A stretch of 62,829 nt of DNA, counting the filler, from Rhabdomonas costata (taxonomy: Eukaryota): the NCBI GenBank assembly GCA_019059605.1. It is 39 parts of 39 records of this genome, joined end to end, with 100 filler letters (N's around TTAATTAATTAA, not from the genome) between each part and the next. Parts side by side here need not be neighbours in the genome. Positions count along the whole stretch, not along the records: positions 51,650 to 53,163 come from JAHMHO010014090.1; 38 more parts are not named here. The stretch is one strand, 5' to 3'. The translations under genes were made by a program, and so were the position numbers. This document shows positions 51,483-53,652 of the stretch, one piece after another (the first letter of the stretch is position 1; the number at the start of each line of letters is the position of its first letter). The notes beneath the pieces are model-generated. The model had not been told where the DNA came from, searched no databases, and saw only the letters and a list, made by a program, of their open reading frames with translations.

Positions 51483-52195
51483 CTACCAAAAAAACGAATT
51501 CCTTCCTGACACATCAGTCCCGCCAACACCCCCCAACCACACCCACCACNNNNNNNNNNNNNNNNNNNNNNNNNNNNNNNNNNNNNNNNNNNNTTAATTA
51601 ATTAANNNNNNNNNNNNNNNNNNNNNNNNNNNNNNNNNNNNNNNNNNNNTGTTGGTCGTTGTCCATACTAAACACCAATGGACAACGACCAAGATCACCG
51701 CCATAATCGAAAAAACTCAACCATCATTCTTTTTTTTTTCAATTGTTGAGTGAGGTTTGCGTGAGGGCCTAATCCGGAACCGGGACAAAAGCTGGCCAGC
51801 GCTTGAGTGACATCCGTGGCCTCGCTCTCTGCGCGGTGCTTGGGTAAAAATAGCACATCATTGTTTACGTGCATTTTGATTCGAATGAGCTGTAATTTTT
51901 TTGTTGGTTTAACCCGTTATTAGGGTGACGGCTCCATGCTTGTGGCTTTATATTATCCTATTCCAACTAATGTGGTTATCACGTCACAAAAAGTGTAGGT
52001 GTATCGATTTGTCCTAACGTCAGGCACGTGCGCAGCGGAGCAGCGGAGCTTCATGGAAGAAGCGAGCCAAAAACTGATGTACATTGTGAATGTTGAGTTT
52101 GGCATCCACCGACTTGCTTTAATTTTCCAGGGGACGTTTACCTCAAACGGCAGGTAAAATATTATTTTATAGAACTACACCGAGAGTCGAGTGTG

Positions 52196-53100
52196 ACGAC
52201 TCAGCTTGACATCGCACCCTCTGTCCCGGCGGGGCCGTGACGTAAGGGTGATGTAAGGGCATGTCGACGGAGGAGGCATGACCAGGCAGGAACACGTAAA
52301 TGCATCAGCGATAGGCGTAGGGATGCTAAAAGGGAGCCATGCGTAGAAGGAAGGCACCGCAGGTAGGAATGCCAAGAGGGTTCCTTCTTACACCCTTCAC
52401 TCTCTCAAAGCTGGTTGGATGTCCTGACACCTCTCAGTCCTCCTACGACTCAGCTTGACATCGCCCAACACCCTGCAGGGCCTTGACGCTAACACCCACA
52501 CCCTCCCACAGCCCTTGACCCCCCGTAGCGCAGCGTAGGACATCCTGACCGTCTTACATCCCTTGAGTGAGTGCATGGAGGCACCTTAGGGTGGCGGAAT
52601 GCACGAACCACGCATGTAGGATGGAAGGAGATGCGTAGCATCGACTGACCGACATCAACACCCTTTCTTACTGGTAGGCCCTCCCTGACGGTCGTGCCTC
52701 CTCTCTTCAACCCCTCTTACGTGTCGCCCTGGGCGGACTCCTCTTCGCATACTCTTACACTTCGGGTTTAGCTGGGGTTCATCCTTCATCCTTGCATACT
52801 AGCGGTGGAGTAGCGTTGGGTTAGCATCTGCATGACAGCTCAGCATCTACGGTGGCATTCTCCCTCTCCCTTCTGTCACCCTTGCACCATCCTTACACCA
52901 TCCTTACACCATCCTTACACCATGACATCCTGACATACACCGTAGCATCAGCGTTAGGAACCACCATCATCCTTGCTCTCAGCGTAATGGTAGGACATCA
53001 TCCTTACAGCAGCAGCATCCCTCACACCCACCCTTCCAACATCGTAGGGTTCATGCTACGGGTACAGCTTGACATCCGACATCTTTGCTGACAGGGTAGC
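52196..53100. pseudogene. Mosaic of divergent mitochondrial cox1/cob (possibly cox2) gene fragments
   Basis: 52368+ NAKRVPSYTLHSLKAGWMS(TGA)HLSVLLRLSLTSP has cox1 TM1 spacing; ~52538 GHPD-V-YI; ~52660 TLSYW..LTV and YVSPW (cob); 52735+ GLLFAYSY...G*HLHDSSAS (cob); ~52945 ASALGTTIILALSVMVGHHPY (cox1 HH). Confidence 0.55.
52885..52923 (+). repeat. 11-nt tandem repeat CACCATCCTTA x3.5
   Basis: Seen directly. Confidence 0.9.
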
Positions 53101-53652
53101 ATGCTTACTCTACTCATCACCCTAAGAGTGGGCATTGCTGCATAACACCAACACCCCAACACANNNNNNNNNNNNNNNNNNNNNNNNNNNNNNNNNNNNN
53201 NNNNNNNTTAATTAATTAANNNNNNNNNNNNNNNNNNNNNNNNNNNNNNNNNNNNNNNNNNNNGGGTGTTTGGGTTGGTGTTGGGATCAGTTCTGGGGGG
53301 CGATTTCTATCCAGTGTGTGGAGTGTGTGGAGATCGGGCTTGGCCATTCGTGCCACATCCATCTTGGGTTGAGTCAGATTGTTTGGGGTTGGGTTTAGCT
53401 GGGTTGTCGCGGGTTGGTGTTCGAGTTCGGGTTTGGGTTGAATTAGCGGTGCGGAGTTTCATCGATGCTGTCCTCAGATTACCAGAGGTGGGGCCGTGCA
53501 CCCGTTTTACGGTTCGGCGTGGGAGAGATGTCGGGAGGGTCTTCCCTGGTCATCGCCGTGGTCTTCATCCGCTCTCATCTCCACTTCCTTCTTTCCTTCT
53601 TCTCTCCTTCCTTCTTTCCTTTTTTCTTGCTTCCTGCTTTCCTAATCGAAAG

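Follow-up and report, generated by a model that had tools for sequence, protein, structure and literature searches.

The window analysed here, a stretch of 62,829 nucleotides from Rhabdomonas costata, is a chain of 39 unrelated contigs of ~1.5 kb, ordered by size and joined by 38 linkers of 100 N that contain a stop-in-all-frames word. There is no biological continuity across any N linker. The segment under study is the right-hand 988 bp of contig G000:C14090 (JAHMHO010014090.1; 1514 bp, window positions 51650-53163), where G000 is the genome assembly. The abrupt change of composition near 52175 in the preliminary description was confirmed: GC content rises from 44.1% (51650-52175) to 54.9% (52176-53163). 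Related contigs shared seven 10-mers with the 526 bp left of the junction and 348 with the 988 bp right of it; the remaining 38 contigs of the window, taken as controls, gave 11-42 each. The left 526 bp are single-copy, as a genome search returned only the sequence itself and one 58-bp match at a contig end. To the right, the repeat mosaic runs to the end of the contig. No gene was identified in the left part. A possible 52-codon exon at 51999-52154, for which Pfam gave no match, has a GT donor at its end ~25 nt before the junction, so the insert would sit in an intron. Perfect or near-perfect inverted repeats were seen at the start of this contig (51652-51692) and of another (L016:14-157); they are possibly amplification artefacts. 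The features are listed in the table.

Table. Features of contig G000:C14090 in window coordinates
Feature	Position	Strand	Remarks
Contig G000:C14090	51650-53163	+	N linkers at both sides; adjoining window sequence unrelated
Single-copy DNA of nuclear type	51650-52175		44% GC, without mosaic vocabulary; presumed nuclear
Junction of single-copy DNA and repeat mosaic	52176-52181		Matches to related contigs begin at 52181 (L011, 96% over 56 bp)
Module A/B	52181-52320	+	Holds copy 1 of the 20-nt repeat (52196-52215)
Module B2	52331-52387	+	Common to L079 (98% over 43 bp), L016, L408 and L409
cox1-TM1-like reading	52389-52472	+	23.8 bits; judged chance; 3' end is repeat copy 2 (52445-52464)
Module C	52539-52679	+	Most widely shared block; hairpin at 52630-52642; origin of the 'ILHAWFVHS' reading
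Module D	52707-52888	+	89% identity over 182 bp to L002; origin of the 'cob' readings
Module E	52783-53157	+	69-96% in pieces to L003-L008 and L018; origin of the 'HH' reading
Short 11-nt tandem repeat	52877-52920	+	

The segment consists of short repeat and hairpin modules in mosaic arrangement and is sharply joined to single-copy DNA. Modules common to other contigs covered 859 of its 988 bp at 69-98% identity, and every contig sharing them was a different mosaic. At least 46 matches to the segment were found in G000 (40 of 88 candidates scored). The 15-nt core of the 20-nt repeat occurs 95 times in the genome, versus 0 for the reversed control. Beyond Module D, the partner contig L002 continues into gene-flank DNA; in L004, L005, L007 and L008, Module E is followed by ~550-600 bp of conserved non-coding sequence (the conserved block). 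DNA hairpins with GNA loops are stable. In the hairpin of Module C, the 5-bp stem was invariant and the 3-nt loop variable in 13 of 13 aligned copies; no compensatory changes were found in the stem among these copies. Mini-hairpin words were enriched, with GCGTAGC occurring 40 times in 40.6 kb and once in 57.5 kb of other contigs (7.2 expected). When the segment was folded as one piece, it did not stand out from its shuffles (z 1.06).

The preliminary description read this mosaic as scrambled fragments of cox1, cob and cox2. The respiratory-like peptides it named can indeed be read near the places where it put them, but they did not behave as gene fragments. The Pfam families COX1, cytochrome b and COX2 matched none of the six frames of the segment, read with TAG as Tyr and TGA as Trp, and none of 18 frames of three related contigs. 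Genome-wide searches at E ≤ 10, with all or nearly all candidates scored, returned 62 matches to COX1, 45 to cytochrome b and 27 to COX2, and contig C14090 was not among them. Six named motifs scored 9.6-13.5 bits on the profiles; random pieces of the shuffled region scored 10.4-12.8 ± 1.7. The chain score for cob, on a six-protein profile, was reached by 76 of 150 shuffles on the plus strand and 14 of 150 on the minus strand, and that for cox2 by 188 and 166 of 200. Neither gene exceeded the mean of its shuffles, apart from cob on the minus strand. In homologous contigs, frames were broken or residues changed at the named motifs.

Only the cox1 TM1-like stretch (52389-52472) stood nominally above chance in the frameshift-aware searches. 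On a profile built from 106 cox1 proteins, a degenerate control copy scored 318 bits; the score of this stretch (23.8 bits) was reached by 1 of 400 shuffles, and a profile made from closer relatives gave 22.9 bits, reached by 6 of 400. For a collinear cox1 chain built on the stretch, 1 and 0 of 600 shuffles did as well. These values speak for the view that the mosaic is a true non-functional relic, made of very old, decayed, amplified and shuffled pieces of cox1 and other genes, and the account of E. gracilis mtDNA as containing short gene fragments (PMC4700960) points the same way. However, the chain dropped to the shuffle mean once the TM1-like stretch was removed, the other segments scoring 10.7-15.0 bits, which is background level. 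No excess of the chain was found in six other family strands. When both strands of 56 related contigs were compared with the profile (contigs under 400 bp omitted, longer ones cut to 1500 bp), z reached 3 or more in 5 of 112 cases, at unrelated profile positions; the mean z values were 0.19 and 0.55, and two of the 112 strands exceeded 23.8 bits. The 15-mer that ends the stretch had a different upstream context in all other copies listed, and the NAKR reading, taken as the start of TM1, was absent from the Module B2 copy in L016. We judged the TM1-like match to be nominally significant but due to chance.

DNA comparison also spoke against an ancient relic, as the segment had no likeness to the present genes. 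Against the cox1 and cob loci there was no match better than E 0.011. Among 56 alignments to 14 pieces of gene contigs, some plain and others tolerant of C/T and A/G editing, six had scores that no more than 1 of 40 shuffles attained. The best of these, re-run with 400 shuffles, were a match of 18/19 nt (2/400) and one of 24 nt (3/400), which are ordinary for 56 tests. Moreover, the peptides have TAC-type Tyr codons where the real gene has TAG. We consider a decayed relic quite improbable.

The real mitochondrial genes look very different. The searches of G000 also returned 40 matches of nad4/nad5 type and 18 of nad1, and contiguous cox1, cob, cox2, nad1 and nad4 are present when TAG is read as Tyr. 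cox1 lies in two contigs, each in a single frame, covering profile positions 16-236 (221 positions) and 237-415 (179 positions). cob (155 profile positions) and nad4 (~250) are each read in one frame. The proposal that the genes are fragmented or scrambled is therefore not supported. The genes are G/T-rich (A 8-12%, G 28-36%, T 37-42%) and have TAG at conserved tyrosines, e.g. the Tyr after GHPEV. A mitochondrial code with UAG as Tyr and UGA as Trp has already been published for R. costata (PMC8219788). Editing or decay, considered possible for some of the defects, is not supported. TAG in place of TGG is an ordinary Tyr codon in these mitochondria, not an unedited Trp (PMC8219788). The extra TA at ~52988 also occurs in related contigs, where frame-breaking differences lie at this place; it thus belongs to the repeat rather than being damage to this copy. 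We take the apparent scrambled fragments to be chance readings, since intact genes of quite different appearance lie elsewhere in the genome. Recurring words of the CAT-CCT/CAT-CAT type, read on the strand that does not carry the genes, may give rise to the peptides.

Several other copies and genes were noted in the same contig set. By eye, gene copies in L026, L033, L042, L053, L145 and L147 are degenerate or joined to non-mitochondrial-looking DNA, and in L108 a piece of a mitochondrial gene or flank is joined to such DNA. Since there are many of them, nuclear copies of mtDNA (NUMTs) appear to be common in the assembly, although the joined copies may be either NUMTs or chimeras. A GC-rich COX3-like exon in L150 (800-991, minus strand; G000:C31520; Pfam E 1.1e-7) is seemingly bounded by splice sites, which suggests a nuclear cox3-like gene. 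A mitochondrion-targeted transcript for complex IV subunit 3, with a Euglena orthologue, is listed in the supplement of PMC8219788. Conventional cox3 or complex-I-type genes without TAG codons were seen in L149 (G000:C27469), L090 (G000:C39239; 34% GC) and L089 (G000:C65586; 62% GC). These three contigs are unlike the G/T-rich gene set and are probably foreign contigs in the assembly.

We also considered diplonemid-like modules that would be edited (A-to-I/C-to-U) and trans-spliced, or antisense guides that would pair with transcripts through G:U. Compared with the genes, the segment has more C and A, as such editing would require, and its polarity would suit antisense guides. Kinetoplastid guide RNAs have 40-55 nt of G:U-tolerant complement to an mRNA. 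No complement of this length was found in the segment or in 50 family strands: the longest G:U-tolerant run in the segment was 24 nt, which was reached by 21 of 60 shuffles, and runs in the family strands were at most 31 nt. The editing-aware alignments to the 14 gene pieces also lay within the tail of the 56 tests. Neither pre-edited nor guide-like sequence thus gave a signal, and contiguous genes exist. No sign of editing is reported for cox1, cox2, cob and nad4 of the organism with the TAG=Tyr code (PMC8219788) or for E. gracilis (PMC4700960). Edited modules or guides are extremely improbable here.

If the segment has no gene fragments, is the mosaic class mitochondrial at all? Gene-flank DNA, i.e. 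DNA contiguous with cox2 or nad1, was present in 5 of the 37 contigs that had been fetched for a match to the segment, versus 0 of 38 controls; one of these five unbiased bridging contigs matches over 22 bp only. Seven more, making 12 bridging contigs in all, had been fetched with the 15-mer and hence form a biased sample. In L405, Module C is followed by a transition zone and then by homology to the cox2 flank (471 bp at 77% and 128 bp at 94.5%), and the passage from mosaic to flank is gradual both here and in L016. The 15-nt core itself lies in the 3' flank of cox2 in L058, on the cox2 strand. Eight bridging contigs have a module match; in 7 of them the minus strand of the window corresponds to the gene-bearing, G/T-rich strand, and L395 is mixed. 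The main peptides of the preliminary description therefore lie on the strand opposite to the genes. As several module contigs carry DNA flanking cox2 or nad1, nearly always in one polarity, the repeat and hairpin mosaic class is probably mitochondrial non-coding DNA. The earlier suggestion of a piece or nuclear copy of a mitochondrial genome is thus retained in part: the DNA probably derives from euglenozoan mitochondria, is rather rich in GC and mosaic in build, and may be a nuclear copy, but the view that it consists of cox1, cob and cox2 fragments is not supported.

The mosaic might instead be a nuclear or extrachromosomal family of hairpin repeats, the bridging contigs being clustered insertions or chimeras. 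Its base composition (A23 C32 G23 T22) is unlike that of the G/T-rich genes, and the five gene flanks tested had no match in 20 contigs that carry the conserved block. What links the block contigs to mitochondria is their composition, together with two short stretches of homology (46 and 57 bp). Few contigs carry a gene and the mosaic together: mosaic vocabulary was seen at two gene-bearing loci only, and weakly (L058 and L104). However, a non-mitochondrial repeat would not readily account for the 15-mer common to the segment and the cox2 flank, for the gradual transitions, or for the consistent polarity and the lack of gene flanks among the controls. We regard such a family as improbable.

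The explanation that we put at slightly better than even is that the segment is non-coding euglenid mtDNA which was copied into nuclear DNA fairly recently, i.e. a young NUMT. As described for E. gracilis (PMC4700960), heterogeneous mtDNA molecules may have recombined at short repeats to give the mosaic, in which case the scrambling would be older than the insertion. NUMT insertion proceeds via double-strand-break repair, and a mosaic piece would then have entered nuclear DNA in this way, presumably without function there. The hairpin modules could have a role when mtDNA replicates or recombines. The best module partners are 94-98% identical to the segment, which points to a young insertion. 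A missing near-identical partner was considered as a marker of a NUMT and rejected, as 12 of 16 other contigs also have none longer than 52 nt.

Alternatively, the DNA may be of the same class and the join a chimera of mtDNA and a nuclear fragment that arose during amplification, library preparation or assembly. Runs of G/T only or A/C only at contig ends, and short inverted repeats, are expected from primer-based amplification, and contig ends in this assembly have them. The assembly is also extremely fragmented (104,289 contigs, 97 Mb), and the modules differ from their best partners by just 2-6%. A published draft genome of a euglenid with the TAG=Tyr code used amplified DNA (PMC8219788). 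On the other hand, strongly degenerate gene copies lie beside non-mitochondrial DNA in the assembly, which is not expected of fresh chimeras. Among the fetched loci, the segment had no near-identical partner over more than 23 nt, a weak argument against a chimera. We therefore hold a chimeric join to be unlikely, and prefer the young NUMT.

The conserved blocks into which Module E leads were compared separately. The block at L005:700-1330 (G000:C16995; 550-600 bp) had at least 51 matches (40 of 109 candidates scored). It occurs in recombined types, between hairpin mosaics and A/C-rich tracts, and its copies (L126 left out of the comparison) differ by swaps of whole segments and by deletions of ~45 nt. 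A second conserved non-coding block was seen downstream of cox2 and its flank (L064:149-830 and L063:149-652); the two copies are 79% identical over 207 and 244 bp and unrelated to the first block. By eye, the first block was persuasive as domains IV-VI of LSU rRNA. However, Rfam scans found no rRNA and nhmmer with a 72-sequence bacterial LSU profile found no match, a test of low power for very divergent mitochondrial rRNA. Similarly, the LSU chain score was reached by 6 of 60 shuffles and 0 of 28 pairwise tests were positive, again with low power for such rRNA. The odds that the block is a divergent rRNA seem low. A 186-aa frame in L005 that by eye resembled the C-terminus of cox1 or cox3 was also rejected as a hidden divergent protein: it had no Pfam match, its chain score was reached by 11 of 40 shuffles, and its single match in 1.84 billion representatives was weak, over seven bacterial fibronectin-III repeats. 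A 14-nt pattern was used to look for relatives of the block in metagenomes; of the 120 stretches returned, none matched beyond ~30 bp around the pattern.

These blocks resemble the constant regions of diplonemids, whose mtDNA is described as multipartite, with modules, cassettes and constant regions (PMC7049700), in that conserved non-coding stretches lie on many molecules beside variable sequence (L005:700-1330). Unlike in diplonemids, the genes are not split into modules of 40-540 bp and there is no editing signal at the DNA level. Such a constant-region architecture is so far known from diplonemids and kinetoplastids, not from euglenids. A bolder but rather unlikely reading takes the euglenid mtDNA for a large multipartite population. 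Conserved blocks (at least two types of several hundred bp, with recombined variants) and hairpin modules would be common to gene-bearing and gene-less molecules, and some of these blocks or modules could be fragmented mitochondrial rRNAs. The segment would then be a nuclear copy of one variable region.

In E. gracilis, mtDNA is described as heterogeneous, recombining linear molecules with intact genes and repeats (PMC4700960). R. costata seems similar in having intact, unedited genes together with a heterogeneous, recombination-prone, repeat-rich mass that fails to assemble. However, the fragments of own genes found among the repeats of Euglena were not detected in the segment (best DNA match 18/19 nt), which is also ~55% GC and rich in hairpin modules, and the genes of R. 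costata use TAG for Tyr. The genes found here agree with those published for R. costata in their code and in the contiguity of cox1, cox2, cob and nad4 (PMC8219788). The segment, by contrast, probably belongs to a class of non-coding mtDNA of which we found no description in the open-access literature. As for the insertion, Diplonema papillatum is reported to have more than 1400 NUMTs, some from constant regions and ~20% in introns and UTRs (PMC10161547). As there, DNA of mitochondrial non-coding type lies beside single-copy DNA, and there are many such joins. Unlike in D. papillatum, the host is a euglenid and the source mtDNA is unassembled, so that the origin and nuclear position of the segment are deduced. 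On balance the segment resembles an ordinary NUMT of non-coding mtDNA, and its membership of that class is slightly favoured.

As a single insert the segment carries minor weight, given that NUMTs, repeat-rich euglenid mtDNA and the TAG=Tyr code are already known. It provides a useful negative result, namely that it contains no fragmented or edited genes. It also gives a lead: the hairpin-mosaic contigs tied to gene flanks may represent an undescribed architecture of non-coding mtDNA in a heterotrophic euglenid.
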